Positions 2,905 through 9,782 of a stretch of 16,360 nt of DNA are shown here, one piece after another. Location of the stretch: NCBI GenBank assembly GCA_003135555.1, contig PLCF01000054.1, forward strand, positions 1-16,360, written 5' to 3'. Each line of letters starts with the position of its first letter. The first letter of the stretch is position 1. The stretch comes from Vulcanimicrobiota bacterium. Lineage in GTDB: Bacteria > Vulcanimicrobiota > Vulcanimicrobiia > Vulcanimicrobiales > Vulcanimicrobiaceae. The notes beneath the pieces are model-generated. The model saw only the letters and a list, made by a program, of their open reading frames with translations. It made no database searches and had not been told where the DNA came from. The position numbers and the translations under genes were made by a program.

Positions 2905-3720
2905 CTAGTGGCCGACACCTGAGTAACGGTTGAGGCCGAAGCGCCAAAAGAGATAGGCCGCCGCGACAAAGAGCACTCCGATCGCGGGCGTGAACAGGCC
3001 GGCGGCCGCGGGCAGCATCGCTCCTTCGTGCGCCTTGTGCAGAAAGTAGCGCGCCGGAAAGTAGTTCATGAACGCGAACGGGACGACGAAGGTGAGCAAG
3101 AGCCGGACGCCGCGCGAGTAGATCGTGATCGGGTATCGGGTGAACTCCTGTTCGAGCTGGATCACGATCCACCGCAGCGCGTCGACGCGCACGAACCAAA
3201 AGGCGACCGTCGAGATGAAGAGGTTGAAGGCCAGGTCGATCATCGCGCCGCCGAGCACGATGAGCGGAACGAAGACCACGAAGGTCGCGTCGACGGTGGC
3301 GCCGCTGTACCACGTGACCACGCCGAAGTAGAGCAGCGCCAAGATCAGCTCGTCGGGAAAGACCTGCCCGGGCGTCGCGATGGCCTGGAACAGCGTGTCG
3401 AGCGGCCGCACCAGCAGCCGGTCGAACTCGCCGTCGCGGATGTGGTCCGGAATGTCGCCCACCGTCGAGAAAAACGTGTTGTGCACCGCGTGCGCCAGCA
3501 TCCACAGCCCGTACAAGAACGCCATGTCGCGGAACGTCCAGCCGTTCATCTCCGGGAAGCGGTTGAGCACGATCCACAGCGCGGTGATCGCCGAACCGTG
3601 GTAGATGAACGTGAAGGCGAACCAGATGAGAAAGTTCTCGCGGTACTCCAGCGTGGTGAGGATGTTGATGCGCCAGTACTGCTTGTAGACGCTCCACATG
3701 ACGCGCAGGCGGTTCAGCAC
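2905..3720 (-). CDS. ABC-2 family exporter permease (ABC2_membrane_6/DUF990, COG3694-like)
   Basis: Motifs LEYRENF, GWTF, IRDGEFDRLLVRPL, YPITIY, VVPFAFMNYFP and GLNRYSGVG, plus multiple TM helices. GTG at 3720 lies 1 nt after the upstream TAG (3722-3724), so it is a better start than the ORF-track 3828. Confidence 0.88.
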   Translation of the reverse strand: MLNRLRVMWSVYKQYWRINILTTLEYRENFLIWFAFTFIYHGSAITALWIVLNRFPEMNGWTFRDMAFLYGLWMLAHAVHNTFFSTVGDIPDHIRDGEFDRLLVRPLDTLFQAIATPGQVFPDELILALLYFGVVTWYSGATVDATFVVFVPLIVLGGAMIDLAFNLFISTVAFWFVRVDALRWIVIQLEQEFTRYPITIYSRGVRLLLTFVVPFAFMNYFPARYFLHKAHEGAMLPAAAGLFTPAIGVLFVAAAYLFWRFGLNRYSGVGH

Positions 3721-3721
3721 A

Positions 3722-4552
3722 CTAGCCGCCCTGCACGATGACGCGCTTTGCCCCGGCGCGCCAGATGATCGTTGCGGCGAATCCCAGCACGACGAGCCAG
3801 AAGACTTGCAGGCCCAGCGCGGCCGCATAGCCCGCAGGTTTGATGTGGCCGATGTAGATCAGCAGCGGCGTCGAGAACATCGCGGCGAACGGGAGCGCGA
3901 AGGCGACCTTCTGCAGGAACGCCGGAAAGATCACCAGCGGGATGATCTCGCCGCCGAAAAGGTCGGTCACCCACGTCACGATCAGTCGAGCCGCATGGAT
4001 CTCGAGCGTCCAGAACGCGATGCAGTTCAGGATGAAGTTGATGCAGAACCCGACCATGTAGCCCAAAAAGCAGCTCAGCGCGAAGGCCGCCAACACCAGC
4101 GGGCCCGGGACGTCTATCTGGACGATGAGCAGCGAGAACAGCAGCGACGGGACGATCAGGATCGCGTGGAAAAGCACCTCGCCCGTTCCGTCGCTGAAAA
4201 AGTAGAGCGGAACGATGATCGGCTTCATGAAGTCGGTCGCGATCGTTCCGCTGTGTAAGTTGTCGTGGAGGATGCGCGTCTGGTCGATGTCCATGACCAG
4301 GCCCATCAGCAACGCCACGGTGGAGTAGGTGATGATCGCATGCAGCGGCAGGTCGGTGGGAGCAGCGTTGCGCAGGTAGAGCGCGACCCACACCATGCGC
4401 AAGAGGTAGACTCGCACGAGGACCGATGCGACCGTCGTGAAGACGTCGAAGCGGTAGGTGGCCTCGCGTGCCATCGCCTTCTGAGCAAATTGGAAGTAGG
4501 GCTCGAGGCGAAAACGGACCTTTGGCGTGACGAGATCGCCGAGTGCGCTCAC
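3722..4552 (-). CDS. ABC-2 family exporter permease (COG4587-like)
   Basis: Motifs TYRFD, GTIATDFMKP, GEIIPL..FP, LPFAAMFSTP and C-terminal VIVQGG, with about 6 TM helices. The GTG start overlaps the ATPase TGA (GTGA, 4552-4549). Confidence 0.88.
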   Translation of the reverse strand: MSALGDLVTPKVRFRLEPYFQFAQKAMAREATYRFDVFTTVASVLVRVYLLRMVWVALYLRNAAPTDLPLHAIITYSTVALLMGLVMDIDQTRILHDNLHSGTIATDFMKPIIVPLYFFSDGTGEVLFHAILIVPSLLFSLLIVQIDVPGPLVLAAFALSCFLGYMVGFCINFILNCIAFWTLEIHAARLIVTWVTDLFGGEIIPLVIFPAFLQKVAFALPFAAMFSTPLLIYIGHIKPAGYAAALGLQVFWLVVLGFAATIIWRAGAKRVIVQGG

Positions 4553-5556
4553 GACGGGGCGCCTACCGTGCCGTCGTGATAGCCTTCGAGGTAGATGCGC
4601 CGCACGATCGATTCGATGTCCGGTTCGATGATCGAGACGTCGGTGATGCGATAGCGCTCGGTGACGCGGCGGATCAGCGCCTCGGCGGTGAGCTCGCGCC
4701 GGTTGAAGCGCAGTCGGATGACCGCGCCTTCGCGGCTCTGGAGCTCGGCGCCGGGGACCGCGATCTCGGCATACGTCTCGGCGAGCGACACGACGAGGAT
4801 CCGGTGCGTGCCGTACTCCTCACGCAGGCGCTCGAGCAGGCCGTCGAAGATGACGGTCCCTTCGTCGATGAGGATGATGCGGGGCGTGAGCCGTTCGACG
4901 TCCGCGAGGTCGTGCGTGGTCAGGATGACCGTCGTTCCACGCTCGCGGTTGATCGTGCCGATGAACTCGCGGATTGCCTCCTTGGCCACCACGTCCAGAC
5001 CGATGGTGGGCTCGTCGAGGTAGACGATCCGCGGGTCGTGCAACATCGCCGCGGCGAAGTCCCCGCGCATCCGCTCGCCCAGCGACAGCTGGCGAACGGG
5101 GGTCCCAAGAAAGCGGTCCAGGTCGAGGATCTCCGCGAAGTGCTTCATGTTCTGCAGATAGCGGTCGCGCGGCACGTCGTAGATCGACCGCAGCAGCTCG
5201 AACGACTCGCGCAGCGGGAGGTCCCAGTACAGCTGGCTGCGCTGTCCGAACACGACGCCGATATTCGCCGCGTTGGCCATGCGGTGGGTGTACGGGACGA
5301 TCCCGGCGACCCGCAGCACGCCCGCGGTCGGGACTAGGATGCCGGTGAGCATCTTGATGGTGGTCGACTTCCCGGCCCCGTTGGGGCCGATGTAGCCCAC
5401 CAGTTCACCCGGCTCGAGCGTGAAGTTGACGTCGTCGACGGCGACCTTCTCCTCGTAGGTCCGCGAGAAGAGTGCCGCGATGGCCCCACCGATCCCGGGG
5501 TCGCGCTCGAGCGACCGAAAGACCTTGCGCAGCCCCGCCGCCTCGATGATCGCCAT
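4549..5556 (-). CDS. ABC transporter ATP-binding protein (COG4586/EvrA-like)
   Basis: Walker A GPNGAGKST, Q-loop VVFGQRSQL, signature LSLGERM, Walker B VYLDEPTIGLD and H-loop TTHD. The ATG at 5556 (MAIIEAAGLRKVF) fits the family N-terminus better than the upstream GTG at 5586. Confidence 0.93.
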   Translation of the reverse strand: MAIIEAAGLRKVFRSLERDPGIGGAIAALFSRTYEEKVAVDDVNFTLEPGELVGYIGPNGAGKSTTIKMLTGILVPTAGVLRVAGIVPYTHRMANAANIGVVFGQRSQLYWDLPLRESFELLRSIYDVPRDRYLQNMKHFAEILDLDRFLGTPVRQLSLGERMRGDFAAAMLHDPRIVYLDEPTIGLDVVAKEAIREFIGTINRERGTTVILTTHDLADVERLTPRIILIDEGTVIFDGLLERLREEYGTHRILVVSLAETYAEIAVPGAELQSREGAVIRLRFNRRELTAEALIRRVTERYRITDVSIIEPDIESIVRRIYLEGYHDGTVGAPS

Positions 5557-5661
5557 GCTCGGCCAGCCTTTTCCCGCGAGCCACACGCCGCCTTTACGAA
5601 CGGCACAGGTCAGGAACTCGGCTGGGGGGAACCGCGCGATACCAACCGACGTTGGAGGGAT

Positions 5662-5689: not shown

Positions 5690-5719
5690 CAAACTGACTA
5701 AGTAAGGGGGTGAGTATAC

Positions 5720-5779
5720 ATGGCAGCGAAGAAAAAGGGCGGCAAGAAGAAGCCCAGCAAGAAGGGCAAGAAGAAGTAA
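5720..5779 (+). CDS. Lysine-rich micropeptide 1, MAAKKKGGKKKPSKKGKKK (19 aa)
   Basis: ATG...TAA read directly from the sequence. SD GGGGGTGA at 5706-5713 lies 6 nt before the ATG. 11 of 19 residues are Lys and none is acidic. Paralogous to two downstream copies with synonymous divergence. Confidence 0.85.
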   Translation: MAAKKKGGKKKPSKKGKKK

Positions 5780-5833
5780 GCCGGTCCCGATTTAGATAGA
5801 CTCCGTTTTTCTCAGTCATCATCCAGACCATAT

Positions 5834-5865
5834 GAGCGCGGCCGGCAACGACCGCGCTCTTTTTA
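5834..5865 (+). terminator. Rho-independent terminator after micropeptide 1
   Basis: GAGCGCGG-C-CG-GCAA-CG-A-CCGCGCTC followed by TTTTTA: a GC stem with GNRA loop and U-tract. Confidence 0.8.
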
Positions 5866-5875
5866 TCCGGCCCCG

Positions 5876-5909
5876 GCGCAGGGAGGCCGGCGCGCCGACG
5901 CAAAAACGC
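5876..5909 (+). promoter_or_regulatory. Conserved 34-nt promoter-like box upstream of micropeptide 2
   Basis: GCGCAGGGAGGCCGGCGCGCCGACGCAAAAACGC is 30/34 identical to 6102-6135. It lies between a terminator and the next SD and ends 44 nt before the ATG. The promoter role is inferred. Confidence 0.45.
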
Positions 5910-5952
5910 TGCTCCAGCGACTTTTTCCTAGAGAGGGGGTGAGTGAAGCATC

Positions 5953-6009
5953 ATGGCAGCCAAGAAGAAAGCCCCGAAGAAGAAACCGTCCAAGAAGGGC
6001 AAGAAGTAA
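5953..6009 (+). CDS. Lysine-rich micropeptide 2, MAAKKKAPKKKPSKKGKK (18 aa)
   Basis: ATG...TAA, with SD GGGGGTGA at 5935-5942. 10 of 18 residues are Lys. Confidence 0.85.
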   Translation: MAAKKKAPKKKPSKKGKK

Positions 6010-6062
6010 GCTCTTTCCGATCGAGATAGACGATTTCTCAGTCATCATCCATATCAAGTCCT

Positions 6063-6095
6063 GAGCGCGGCCGGCGACGACCGCGCTCTTGTTAT
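6063..6095 (+). terminator. Terminator-like hairpin after micropeptide 2
   Basis: GAGCGCGG-C-CG-GCGA-CG-A-CCGCGCTC followed by TTGTTAT. The GNRA loop is retained (GCGA versus GCAA). Confidence 0.7.
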
Positions 6096-6101
6096 CCTCC
6101 C

Positions 6102-6135
6102 GCGCAGGGAGGCCGGGGCGCCGGCGCCAAAGCGC
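6102..6135 (+). promoter_or_regulatory. Conserved 34-nt promoter-like box upstream of micropeptide 3
   Basis: GCGCAGGGAGGCCGGGGCGCCGGCGCCAAAGCGC is the paralog of 5876-5909 and ends 43 nt before the ATG. Confidence 0.45.
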
Positions 6136-6177
6136 GCCCACCGACTCCGGCTCAGAGAGGGGGTGAGTGAACACATC

Positions 6178-6234
6178 ATGGCTGCAAAGAAGAAAGCCCC
6201 GAAGAAGAAACCGTCCAAGAAGGGCAAGAAGTAG
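6178..6234 (+). CDS. Lysine-rich micropeptide 3, MAAKKKAPKKKPSKKGKK (18 aa)
   Basis: ATG...TAG, with SD GGGGGTGA at 6159-6166. The peptide is identical to copy 2, with only 3 nt differences, all silent (GCA/GCT, GCC/GCA, TAA/TAG). Confidence 0.85.
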   Translation: MAAKKKAPKKKPSKKGKK

Positions 6235-6270
6235 CCCGTACCGGTCTCTGTCTTCATCTCATTCGATTCC

Positions 6271-6300
6271 AGCGCGGCCGGCAACGGCCGCGCTCCTCTT
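6271..6300 (+). terminator. Hairpin after micropeptide 3, between convergent genes
   Basis: Perfect 10-bp stem AGCGCGGCCG-GCAA-CGGCCGCGCT (6271-6294) with a weak tail CCTCTT. It abuts the stop codon of the convergent SRPBCC gene. Confidence 0.6.
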
Positions 6301-6736
6301 ATGCCGGGCCGGGCTCGCCGCCCGCCGCTCGTAGGGCCAACCGCTCGAGGTTGGCCGGCATCGCGACGGCCATGCGGTCCGCGGCGCGGCGCAAGAACGG
6401 ACCAGCCAGCGGCCCCGCGATCCCGATCGTCCCCGCGATCGAGGTGCCCGTGCCGGCCGCCGCGAGCTCCCACCGAAAACGCAGCGCCGCCACCGGCCCG
6501 AAGCGGACCACCAGCGACAGCAGCCGCTGGGGGACGACCGCCTCGATCCGAAACGCCGTCTGCGGCCCGCGCTTGGGCTTCAACGTCAGGCGCGTCCCGG
6601 GCTCGAGCGGCCCCTCGAGCACCATCCAGTCGACGCCGCGATTCCACAGCGCCCAGCGCCGGCCGTCGAGCAGGACGTCCCAGACGCGCTCCGGCGCGGC
6701 GGTCGAGGTCGCGGCGGCGGTCCGTTCCCAGCTCAT
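6299..6736 (-). CDS. SRPBCC (polyketide cyclase/dehydrase-like) family protein
   Basis: 145 aa from ATG 6736: MSWERTAAATSTAAPERVWDVLLDGRRWALWN...LEGPLEPGT...C-terminal helix MPANLERL. This matches the typical A-P-E-x-V-W...D...W..W SRPBCC pattern. The ORF-track extension to 7114 overlaps the opposite-strand gene. Confidence 0.8.
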   Translation of the reverse strand: MSWERTAAATSTAAPERVWDVLLDGRRWALWNRGVDWMVLEGPLEPGTRLTLKPKRGPQTAFRIEAVVPQRLLSLVVRFGPVAALRFRWELAAAGTGTSIAGTIGIAGPLAGPFLRRAADRMAVAMPANLERLALRAAGGEPGPA

Positions 6737-6752
6737 CGCGAATCGGTGTTCC

Positions 6753-7250
6753 ATGGACGAGCCGCAGAACCCGATCGTCGCCATGGCGCAGAAGCTGCGG
6801 GCCCGGCGCGACCTGGGCGCGGCGATCGACTCCGCGACCGCCGGCACCGCGTCGCCGCGCGGGGATGACGCGGCGAGCCGCTTCGCCGCGCTCGCCGAGG
6901 TGCTCGCGATCGGGGTGAAGCGGCTCAACTCGATCCTGGGCAAGCGCACCGGGGTGACCTTCGTGCGGCTCGACGATCCGCCGCGGCTGCGGCTGCGCTT
7001 CCGCGAGCGGCGCATCGCCCTCGACCTCGATGCCGCCCGGCAGCTGGTCCTCGTCAGCGGCGAGGGGCTCGAGGGCGAGTACCAGTTTCTCGACGCCGAT
7101 CTCCCCGCGCTCATGAACCTCTCGAAGTTCTCGACCGACGCCGGCTACCGCGACGCCCTGACCGGCTCCGAGCTGCTCAAGACGATCGCGGCCGACGCCC
7201 AGCTGCCGCGCCCCGCCCATCTGGACGAACCCGGCCCGATGCGCTTTTAG
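6753..7250 (+). CDS. Hypothetical protein (165 aa)
   Basis: MDEPQNPIVAMAQKLRARRDL...GPMRF, with strong GC third-position bias and normal composition. It fills the gap between SRPBCC and nth. No family recognised. Confidence 0.7.
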   Translation: MDEPQNPIVAMAQKLRARRDLGAAIDSATAGTASPRGDDAASRFAALAEVLAIGVKRLNSILGKRTGVTFVRLDDPPRLRLRFRERRIALDLDAARQLVLVSGEGLEGEYQFLDADLPALMNLSKFSTDAGYRDALTGSELLKTIAADAQLPRPAHLDEPGPMRF

Positions 7251-7920
7251 GCGCGCGTCGCGCTCGAGCCACAATCGGGCGCGACGGGCACATCGTCACC
7301 GGGCAGCGCTCGCACGCCGGCGTCGGTGCCTTGCAGACCTCGCGGCCGTGAAGGATCAGCCAGTGGTGCGCGTGGCGCCACTGCTCGCGCGGCACGAGCT
7401 TGGTCACATCGTCCTCGACGCCCCGCGGCGTCGCCGCCAACGTCAGGCCGAGCCGGTGCGCGACCCGGAACACGTGCGTGTCGACCGCGAAGGCCGCCTC
7501 TCCGAACGCGACCGACATCACGACGTTCGCGGTCTTGCGCCCCACGCCGGACAGCGCTTCGAGCGACTCCCGGTCGGGGGGAACCGCGCCGCCATGCTCG
7601 GCGACGAGCCCGCGTGCGGCGTTGATGATGTTCTTCGCCTTCGTCCGGAAAAAGCCGCACGACTTGATGATCGTTTCGATGTCGGCCTGGTCGGCGCGCG
7701 CCAGCGACGCCGCATCGGGATATCTCGCGAACAAGTACGGCGTCGTGAGGTTCACGCGAGCGTCGGTGCATTGCGCGCTCAGGATCACCGCCACGAGCAG
7801 CTCGAACGGGCTATCGTAGTCGAGCGCGGTGACCGCGTGCGGGTACGTCCGCTCGAGGATCGCGAGCTCCTCGGCCGCGACCGCGCGCGAGACCTTCTTG
7901 CGAGGGAACGGGATCGTCAC
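7177..7920 (-). CDS. nth: Endonuclease III (HhH-GPD DNA glycosylase/AP lyase)
   Basis: FELLVAVILSAQCTDARVN, HhH LSGVGRKTANVV (catalytic Lys), AVDTHVFRV (catalytic Asp), HHWLILHGR and a C-terminal Cys cluster CKAPTPACERCPVTMC. Confidence 0.95.
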   Translation of the reverse strand: MTIPFPRKKVSRAVAAEELAILERTYPHAVTALDYDSPFELLVAVILSAQCTDARVNLTTPYLFARYPDAASLARADQADIETIIKSCGFFRTKAKNIINAARGLVAEHGGAVPPDRESLEALSGVGRKTANVVMSVAFGEAAFAVDTHVFRVAHRLGLTLAATPRGVEDDVTKLVPREQWRHAHHWLILHGREVCKAPTPACERCPVTMCPSRPIVARARRAPKSASGRVRPDGRGAAAGRRPRSS

Positions 7921-8876: not shown

Positions 8877-9782
8877 TCAGGCCAGACGTACTTCCTGTGA
8901 ATCACAGGTCACGATTCCGTCGCGCACCAGCATGTCTACGACGTTCGGTATTTCGTGCAGGCGGTCGCCCGGAACGCTTGCGGCCAGATCGCGCAGCAAC
9001 GTCGCGAGCGGCAGCGCTTCACGCGGCGCGAGATCGCGCAATCGGTCGACGATGCGCCCGCGCAGGTACCGCGTCGAGCGCTCGAACGGTATGCCGCTTT
9101 GCGGCGACTTGGCCGGCGCGTGCGCGCGGGCGCGCGTAGTCAGCTCGACGGGGTCGACGGGAGCGGCGACGCACGCGTCGCGCAACGGACAGATCAGACA
9201 CTTCGGCGCGCGCGCGGTACAGATCGTGGCGCCGAGATCCATCAGCGCGGAGTTCCAATCGTGCGCAGCGCCGTGCGGGACGGCGGCGATTGCGAGCGTA
9301 TCCAGCGTGCGGTCGTCCGCGAGCCGCGGATGCTCCAGACCCAACGCGACGCGATGGATCACCCGCCGCACGTTGACGTCGACCGCGGCGTCATCGAGCT
9401 CGAAGGCGAAAGCCCGCAGGGCGGACGCGGTGTAGGCGCCGATCCCCGGCAGCGCGCGCAGCGCGGCCGGGTCGGCCGGAAGCAGCCCGCCGTGACGCGC
9501 CTGCACGGCACGGGCGAGCGCGTGCAACCGAACCGCGCGGCTGTTGTAGCCGAGCCCGCGCCAGGCCCGCACGACGTCGGCGGCCTCGGCGGCGGCGAGC
9601 GCGGCGAATCCCGGCCAGCGCGCGACGAACGCTTCGTAGTGGGGGACCACCCGTTCGACCTGCGTTTGCTGCAGCATCAGCTCGCTCACCAGGATTCGGT
9701 ACGGGTCGCGCGTCGAGCGCCACGGCAGATGCGCGCGACCGTGGCGCGCATACCATTTCAACAGCGCACGCGTCGGGAACAG
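8877..9782 (-). CDS. mutY: A/G-specific adenine glycosylase, short form lacking the NUDIX-like C-terminal domain; start uncertain
   Basis: LLKWY...R..LPWR...DPYRILVSELMLQQTQVERV, WRGLGYNSRA, HhH LPGIGAYTA, VDVNVRRV and Fe-S motif C-X6-C-X2-C-X5-C (CTARAPKCLICPLRDAC). The first canonical start is TTG 9761, but the frame continues upstream through FPTRAL to CTG codons at 9782 and 9809. Confidence 0.9.
   Translation of the reverse strand: MFPTRALLKWYARHGRAHLPWRSTRDPYRILVSELMLQQTQVERVVPHYEAFVARWPGFAALAAAEAADVVRAWRGLGYNSRAVRLHALARAVQARHGGLLPADPAALRALPGIGAYTASALRAFAFELDDAAVDVNVRRVIHRVALGLEHPRLADDRTLDTLAIAAVPHGAAHDWNSALMDLGATICTARAPKCLICPLRDACVAAPVDPVELTTRARAHAPAKSPQSGIPFERSTRYLRGRIVDRLRDLAPREALPLATLLRDLAASVPGDRLHEIPNVVDMLVRDGIVTCDSQEVRLA

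Follow-up and report, generated by a model that had tools for sequence, protein, structure and literature searches.

What does a bacterium gain from three tandem genes whose predicted products are 18-19 residues long and more than half lysine? The question is raised by a 16,360-nt stretch of DNA (the window) from an uncultured peat-bog bacterium of the Vulcanimicrobiota (assembly GCA_003135555.1, contig PLCF01000054.1), in which three micro-gene cassettes, each comprising the Shine-Dalgarno (SD) word GGGGGTGA, a short open reading frame (ORF) and a hairpin with a GNRA loop, follow one another across positions 5706-6294. An initial annotation, made from the sequence alone, had proposed an unannotated family of free, protamine- or polyamine-like peptides. 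The anatomy of these genes, their conservation, the coding type of their substitutions and the recurrence of their tandem amplification are matters of observation, and on the sequence evidence the locus is probably a real translated gene. The whole reading that we prefer, in which this gene is induced by stress and its product acts as a polycation on cellular polyanions, goes further than that and is, in our judgment, evenly poised.

The array is present in nature and not only in one assembly. Every element claimed for the three cassettes can be found in the sequence, and a direct-repeat search returns three copies, spaced 233 and 225 nt. The host is represented by a metagenome-assembled genome of 3.57 Mb (98 contigs, 84% complete, 68% GC). 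Exact unitigs from four peat-metagenome runs, from four studies, bridge copy 1 to copy 2, copy 2 to copy 3, and copy 3 to the downstream gene; since every junction is spanned in this way, the array is not an assembly artefact. Each peptide has 10-11 Lys among its 18-19 residues, and the three ORFs are the only small Lys-rich ones (10-45 amino acids [aa], at least 40% Lys) in the genome. The word GGGGGTGA is common there as an SD-like sequence, with 80 occurrences against 21 for the reversed word; it is a strong SD, yet not one unique to the micro-genes. The hairpins of all three cassettes are GC-rich, with weak U-tracts in copies 2 and 3, and none was flagged by a simple terminator scan because their stems are bulged.

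Conservation within the genus speaks most directly to the nature of the product. A DNA search matched 23 of 24 genus genomes. Of 32 genus genomes, 31 contain the start pattern ATGGCNGCNAARAARAAR, as do 82 of the 401 genomes in the phylum; a reversed control gives about a dozen hits. (Genome tallies here include the unpublished genomes G036, G250, G292, G264 and G256; no conclusion rests on these alone.) Each of the 20 genus loci retrieved, and each of 16 additional copies from the genus, has an ORF complete with ATG, SD and stop. In the 20 loci the peptide takes the form MAAKKK-xx-KKKP-x-KKG(G)KK, 17-20 aa long. The 36 genus ORFs encode 21 distinct peptides built from K, A, G, P, M and S plus two V, one T and one H, with no Arg, Asp, Glu or aromatic residue among them, and their 366 Lys codons are divided between AAG (326) and AAA (40). 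In the 19-aa class, codon positions 1, 2 and 3 have 6, 6 and 14 variable columns respectively, and most of the changes at the first two affect the small-residue spacers, residues 7, 8, 13 and 17. Judged from these codon positions, the pattern of substitution is of the protein-coding type.

The array carries a similar record within itself. Three of 57 positions distinguish ORF 2 from ORF 3, and all of these changes, the TAA/TAG stop included, are silent; the probability that three random substitutions in the ORF would all be silent is 0.007. The flanks of the same two copies are identical at only 125 of 176 positions (71%; Fisher p = 1e-4 against the ORF), made up of 22/25 in the SD region, 45/60 in the upstream spacer, 28/54 in the 3' untranslated region (UTR) and 30/37 in the hairpin.

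Outside the genus, it is the charge that persists. When the ATPase of the ATP-binding cassette (ABC) operon that adjoins the array was traced into the family, 9 of 29 loci, from seven other genera and the genus itself, proved to carry a Lys-rich micro-ORF in the corresponding position. By ABC match these nine rank first, their ATPases being 72-79% identical to that of the window; the 20 loci that carry no micro-ORF have ATPase identities of 67-73%. In the seven other genera the syntenic gene encodes 15-23 aa with at least 40% Lys and retains its SD and terminator, and its sequence has diverged (for example, MAMKKAKKKATAKKKK and MPAKKKVAKKKAAAKKKK). Since these orthologues retain charge and differ in sequence, selection acts on positive charge and small size and not on a sequence or RNA word.

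Tandem arrays recur as well: G000 has three copies, G009, G091 and G361 have two each, and G100, from another genus, has three. In two of the G100 paralogues Lys is replaced by Arg or His through the codons AGG, AGA, CGC, CAC and CAT; such exchanges are conservative for a protein and not for an RNA, and therefore argue that charge, not the Lys codon, is selected. The proposals that selection acts on the peptide and that copy number has been amplified, both made when the array was first described, are thus borne out by the intact genus ORFs, the codon pattern, the silent differences between copies 2 and 3, the charge-keeping orthologues and the repeated arrays. The G100 array (L195:440-1440) is an independent triple; one of its paralogues alternates His and Lys (MAAKRKHKHKHKHKSRGKHKGK), and its middle copy has lost the CGTT of the promoter motif discussed below. 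Separately, two loci of genome G021 (L174 and L175, on contigs C3 and C5) each carry a 33-aa ORF. The two products, MAAKKKASKYSRPHKGGKKGKKSFRLRTRRLHD and one that differs by Q for H, are almost the same; they start like the micro-peptide and end in an Arg-rich tail, and the ORFs have neither the cassette SD nor the promoter motif nor the terminator; these could be derived or chance relatives.

Upstream of copy 1 stands a motif that suggests how the array may be controlled. Its elements (-35 GGAAC, -10 CGTT, 16-18 nt apart) are those of promoters read by group 4 extracytoplasmic function (ECF) sigma factors. In the 20 aligned genus cassettes GGAAC and CGTTG are invariant, 16-18 nt apart and about 65-70 nt before the ATG; every further genus copy retrieved also has the GGAAC..CGTT motif, and in 9 of 11 other-genus cassettes it lies 38-70 nt before the ATG with a different spacer and different surroundings. 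For sigH/sigE of Corynebacterium glutamicum, one source gives GGAAC-N17-18-cGTT and a regulon that includes dnaK, dnaJ2, clgR and sigB, and describes envelope stress as a common trigger of ECF sigma factors (PMC10012870); the general-stress sigma factor EcfG is assigned GGAAC-N16-CGTT in another (PMC7083833). The tRNA genes of the host have classical TTGACA-N17-TAnnnT promoters, and the cassette promoter would therefore belong to a different class. A few nucleotides past the predicted transcription start there is a 5' stem-loop, in which 85.6% of cells in the genus alignment are paired against 78.2 ± 1.6% in shuffles; none of 500 shuffles reaches the observed pairing or covariation score, 5 of its 8 pairs show compensatory changes, and controls slid along the alignment pair at 23-59%. 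Hairpins at the extreme 5' end can stabilise bacterial mRNA.

From these elements we infer the class of the promoter, the expression and translation of the gene, and the target and effect of the peptide, as follows. Copy 1 would be a complete transcription unit, with an ECF-type promoter, the 5' stem-loop, an 8-nt SD, a 19-codon ORF, a conserved 3' UTR and an intrinsic terminator. An ECF sigma factor would turn it on under envelope, heat or oxidative stress, and the 5' hairpin and strong SD would make for a stable, well-translated message; these two elements are also the basis on which the gene may be called highly translated, as the initial annotation called it. The product would be an unstructured peptide of 18-19 residues carrying a charge of about +10 to +11 from lysine, under selection for charge, small residues and length, and not for exact sequence. 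It would remain in the cytoplasm as a genetically encoded polycation, or "peptide polyamine", that binds and neutralises RNA, ribosomes, DNA or polyphosphate by charge, and its dosage would be set by copy number.

Several observations weigh against parts of this scheme. Copies 2 and 3 lack the GGAAC..CGTT motif, and their upstream spacers resemble a degenerate form of it (GGGAGG for GGGAAC, CGCT/CGCG for CGTT). The three units are therefore not equivalent, and copies 2 and 3 would depend for their expression on read-through past the leaky terminators upstream, or on an unrecognised promoter. The earlier description of the genes as self-contained is supported by the comparisons, with the qualification that the copies are not equivalent units in this respect; the accompanying guess at a stress role gains indirect support from the promoter motif of copy 1. 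Across the genome the motif shows no enrichment (64 matches against 44 in a control; 7 against 5 upstream of ORFs), nor was it found before the 15 sigma-factor (Sigma70_r2) genes of this 84%-complete genome, whose gene starts are crudely assigned, so no regulon can be defined. A dyad that overlaps the -10 element recurs in relatives with its arms changed or shifted (ACCGGC/GCCGGT, CACCGGCA/TGCCGGTG, ACCCAAC/GTTGGGT) and with several G-T pairs on the + strand; in the genus alignment RNAalifold finds G-U pairs there and no double changes. Such a dyad could serve as an operator or form a hairpin, whether in RNA or in DNA, and its compensatory manner of change means that the stretch could be transcribed RNA and not promoter. 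In-frame insertions and deletions in the ORFs could also come from slippage on AAG repeats. The 79 ORFs that flank similar micro-genes in other phyla (see below) have heterogeneous functions with no common theme (SecA in three loci of candidate phyla radiation [CPR] bacteria and a sigma-54 activator in two Eisenbacteria loci are among them). Finally, simple charge neutralisation does not explain why Lys is used so strictly in place of Arg when the genome is 68% GC; a property specific to lysine, such as weaker or more reversible binding, acetylation or polyphosphate chemistry, may lie behind it.

If the peptide is made, it would represent a class of protein wholly missed by current annotation, being below the length limits of gene callers, cut by trypsin into fragments too small to detect, and masked by low-complexity filters. 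The locus offers three handles on such a class, in its stress promoter, its natural copy number of 1-3, and its orthologues that keep charge and not sequence. A stress-controlled, encoded polycation would bear on nucleoid compaction, ribosome parking and the buffering of polyanions in dormant soil and peat bacteria. The features of the array and of its neighbourhood are collected in Table 1.

Table 1. Sequence features of the micro-gene array and adjoining genes (window coordinates)
Feature	Position	Strand	Basis or remark
Divergent ABC-2 exporter operon	2908..5556	-	Pfam, NCBIfam; conserved neighbour
DrrA-like ATPase of the ABC-2 operon	4552-5556	-	
Two ABC2_membrane_6 permeases of the ABC-2 operon	3725-4552, 2908-3828	-	
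ECF-sigma-type promoter motif, GGAAC-N17-CGTT	GGAAC 5628-5632, CGTT 5650-5653	+	Copy 1 only; putative function
Dyad CCAAC-N4-GTTGG	5642..5655	unassigned (.)	Overlaps the -10 element
5' stem-loop	5663..5688	+	A few nt past the predicted transcription start; present in centroid folds
SD GGGGGTGA, copy 1	5706-5713	+	Invariant in genus alignment, retained in other genera
Micro-ORF 1, MAAKKKGGKKKPSKKGKKK, 19 aa	ATG 5720-TAA 5779	+	Intact ORF in 20/20 genus loci
3' UTR boxes, copy 1	AGATAGA 5794-5800, TCTCAGTCATCATCC 5810-5824	+	Genus-conserved
Terminator-like hairpin 1, GCAA loop	5834-5859, with T-run to 5866	+	Minimum-free-energy and centroid folds; stem invariant in genus
SD GGGGGTGA, copy 2	5935-5942	+	Sequence and repeat search
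Micro-ORF 2, MAAKKKAPKKKPSKKGKK, 18 aa	ATG 5953-TAA 6009	+	No GGAAC..CGTT motif upstream
3' UTR boxes, copy 2	AGATAGA 6024-6030, TCTCAGTCATCATCC 6036-6050	+	Sequence, repeat search
Hairpin 2, GCGA loop	6063-6088, with weak U-tract to 6095	+	Sequence, repeat search
SD GGGGGTGA, copy 3	6159-6166	+	Sequence and repeat search
Micro-ORF 3, MAAKKKAPKKKPSKKGKK, 18 aa	ATG 6178-TAG 6234	+	Three silent changes relative to ORF 2
Hairpin 3, GCAA loop	6271-6294 (element to 6302)	unassigned (.)	4 nt past the stop of the convergent gene
SRPBCC (Polyketide_cyc2) gene, convergent	6302..7114	-	Conserved downstream neighbour

Genes of this kind are not confined to the phylum. A scan for MAAKKKxxKKK, with one genome per species, returned at least 120 loci; among the matches listed, 82 are ORFs of at most 45 aa, from Acidobacteriota, Alphaproteobacteria, Planctomycetota, Actinomycetota, CPR bacteria and DPANN archaea. 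An SD-like word precedes 62 of the 76 listed micro-ORFs with enough flank, and a terminator-like hairpin lies within 130 nt in 47 of the 76, against a mean of 8 (maximum 13) in shuffles; several of the listed micro-ORFs have near-consensus sigma-70 promoters. Such features fit an abundant housekeeping product, and they lend some weight to the idea that the peptide is a ribosomal or ribosome-hibernation micro-subunit seated in an rRNA pocket, in the manner of bS22, bL37, bTHX and eL41. These proteins are very short, unstructured and strongly basic, and are encoded by stand-alone genes that are often overlooked by gene callers; in size, charge and lack of structure the micro-peptides are akin to them. 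The micro-peptides, however, gave no Pfam, NCBIfam or PDB match at E <= 10, are Lys-only and not mixed Arg/Lys, are unconserved in sequence between genera, occur in 1-3 copies, and stand behind a promoter of the stress type and not the housekeeping type. A fixed rRNA pocket would be expected to constrain both sequence and copy number, where the micro-genes evolve fast and vary, and ribosomal genes adjoin neither the window array nor its counterparts among the 79 neighbouring ORFs in other phyla. A ribosomal role is thus unlikely, if better supported than the alternatives that follow.

The database comparisons on which part of this argument depends were negative throughout. No Pfam or NCBIfam family matched at E <= 10 for seven peptides of 20-23 aa, in searches whose sensitivity is limited by low complexity and short length; phmmer against PDB gave no hit at E <= 10 for two peptides of 20-23 aa; and eight relatives of 20-22 aa, looked up exactly in a collection of 15 billion proteins, were all absent. 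No description of bacterial polylysine micro-genes was found in the literature covered, subscription journals and supplements being outside that coverage, and the string "MAAKKK" was not found in the literature searched. Within the databases and the literature covered, these results support the view that the genes are unannotated and their family undescribed. It is tempting to go further and to see free polylysine peptides as an unannotated class that is widespread among bacteria and archaea and forms, by way of the ribosome, a counterpart to polyamines, which in the present lineage has been wired to an ECF sigma factor and repeatedly amplified in tandem, allowing the cell to fill its cytoplasm with a lysine polycation, and which shields or silences ribosomes, RNA or the nucleoid in stress or dormancy; this remains a tentative proposal that we think less likely to be right than wrong.

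Other named systems offer partial precedents for a polycation of this kind. Histone H1 tails, chlamydial Hc1/Hc2, the HupB tail and AlgP share the Lys/Ala/Pro composition, but there it forms long repeats within larger proteins, with K mixed with R, whereas the micro-peptide, at 16-23 aa, is the whole product. The array products have no other domain and do not belong with H1, Hc1 or AlgP, which are defined by a long K/A/P region within a larger protein. Larger K/A/P-rich ORFs (140-688 aa) occur in the host genome too. Among named genes, the closest precedent is tpr (b1229) of Escherichia coli, a 29-codon basic ORF in the tyrT-tyrV-rttR transcript that is annotated in a model genome, as a "protamine-like protein". 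It is unrelated: its product is Arg-rich with acidic residues and has no sequence or compositional similarity to the polylysine peptides, and the ORF has no promoter of its own, no SD-ORF-terminator cassette and no established function.

The neighbourhood of the array raises a different possibility, that the peptide is exported. The array fills the gap between the start of a divergent ABC-2 (DrrA-like) exporter operon and the stop of a convergent SRPBCC gene, and it shares with the exporter operon a divergent control region of 163 nt. Of the 20 genus loci, 19 (all except L016) have an ABC ATPase match next to the micro-ORF, as do L096 and L059; an SRPBCC match is present alongside in 16 of the 20 and in L096. 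An exported peptide would be an extracytoplasmic antimicrobial, or a coat that changes the charge of the envelope. The shared control region and the persistence of the pair in the genus loci and in seven other genera agree with such a role, as does the frequency with which ECF sigma factors respond to envelope stress (PMC10012870). Against it, the ABC operon does without the micro-gene in 20 of the 29 family loci, from which it follows that the exporter is the older of the two and independent of the micro-gene. Within a single family, linkage may reflect nothing more than common descent, and among the scanned loci of similar micro-genes in other phyla an ABC neighbour occurs only once. The peptide itself has neither a signal or leader sequence nor a hydrophobic residue. 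Nor does the exporter point to a substrate: NCBIfam gives DrrA-like matches below threshold only, its homologues bear generic names, and a look in the literature for "viologen exporter", as a lead to the substrate, gave nothing usable. We consider export improbable.

Three further observations belong to these neighbours. Hairpin 3, lying where the array meets the SRPBCC gene, could serve as a bidirectional terminator for micro-gene 3 and the convergent gene. The SRPBCC ORF is continuous in the window (271 aa), and in most relatives it is split near residue 124 (tblastn, two frames), a difference that would fit a fusion here of what are two overlapping genes in the relatives, or else a frameshift. 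A box, CTTTACG (5593-5599), lies 37 nt upstream of the ABC ATPase start, is kept across the genus alignment, and may be part of the promoter or leader of the divergent operon.

A third alternative makes the ORF a sensor and its product irrelevant, the slowing of ribosomes on Lys codons or on a polybasic chain changing RNA folding or termination, as in a lysine- or translation-responsive attenuator or riboregulator. The elements are suggestive: 10-11 of 18-19 codons specify Lys, a terminator with a T-run follows about 55 nt past the stop, and the 3' UTR holds boxes (AGATAGA and UCUCAGUCAUCAUCC) that the genus conserves and that include a sequence able to pair with the SD. RNAalifold pairs UCAUCC of the 3' UTR with GGGUGA of the SD in 98% of cells, over 6 bp and with no covariation; since both partners are invariant, nothing proves that the 5' and 3' ends pair. 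The arrangement recalls mRNAs of the type of icaR in Staphylococcus aureus, in which the 3' UTR pairs with the Shine-Dalgarno region, and it differs in the shortness of the helix, the want of covariation, and the absence of the box from copy 3 and from other genera, where the ORF persists. A short ORF saturated with the codons of one residue and followed by a terminator is also the plan of leader-peptide attenuators, and in mycobacteria polycysteine short ORFs serve as attenuators, according to a preprint (10.1101/834739). Those elements act on a gene downstream. No same-strand gene follows the array, the next gene being convergent here and in the genus loci, and the micro-ORF is therefore not a leader peptide. 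Single-sequence folds offer no stable alternative to the terminator, the folding energy of the transcript not being significantly below that of shuffles (z = -1.2, -1.4); the centroid folds have no stable element besides the 5' hairpin and the terminator, and RNAalifold finds no covarying competing helix. The replacement of K by R or H in G100, which preserves charge and not Lys codons, likewise points to selection on charge and not on the codon. We consider a sensor highly unlikely. The AGATAGA box was also considered as a supplier of stops in the alternative frames for slipping ribosomes, and was rejected: both alternative-frame stops precede the terminator in 13 of 35 cassettes, against 11.7 ± 2.7 in shuffles.

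Least likely of all is that the transcript acts mainly as RNA, whether as an Hfq-binding (class II-like) small RNA or sponge ((AAG)n being (A-R-N)n, with a terminator U-tail) or as a dual-function RNA, since its purine triplet repeats, terminator and conserved non-coding boxes, in a genome that encodes Hfq, are countered by Lys codons whose third positions are only A or G and never C or T (an A-R-N constraint would allow both) and whose second positions are never G within the genus (where it would allow A or G), by the invariance of ATG, SD and stop, by the lack of excess folding energy over shuffles, and by Rfam, which gives no match at gathering score and, under permissive settings, a best of 21 bits against a 41-bit cut-off.

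Some features of the wider region and genome can be recorded beside the array. Beyond the SRPBCC gene, on the - strand, two genes of the HhH-GPD (endonuclease III/glycosylase-like) kind lie less than 2 kb apart (7180-7920 and 8880-9761), the second with the EndIII 4Fe-4S motif. ARAGORN finds no tRNA gene in the window; elsewhere in the host genome (contig C83:48687-50222) it finds about 17 tRNA genes head to tail in 1.5 kb, one of them labelled tRNA-Pyl, in an array that adjoins a run of N and might be mobile or phage-derived.

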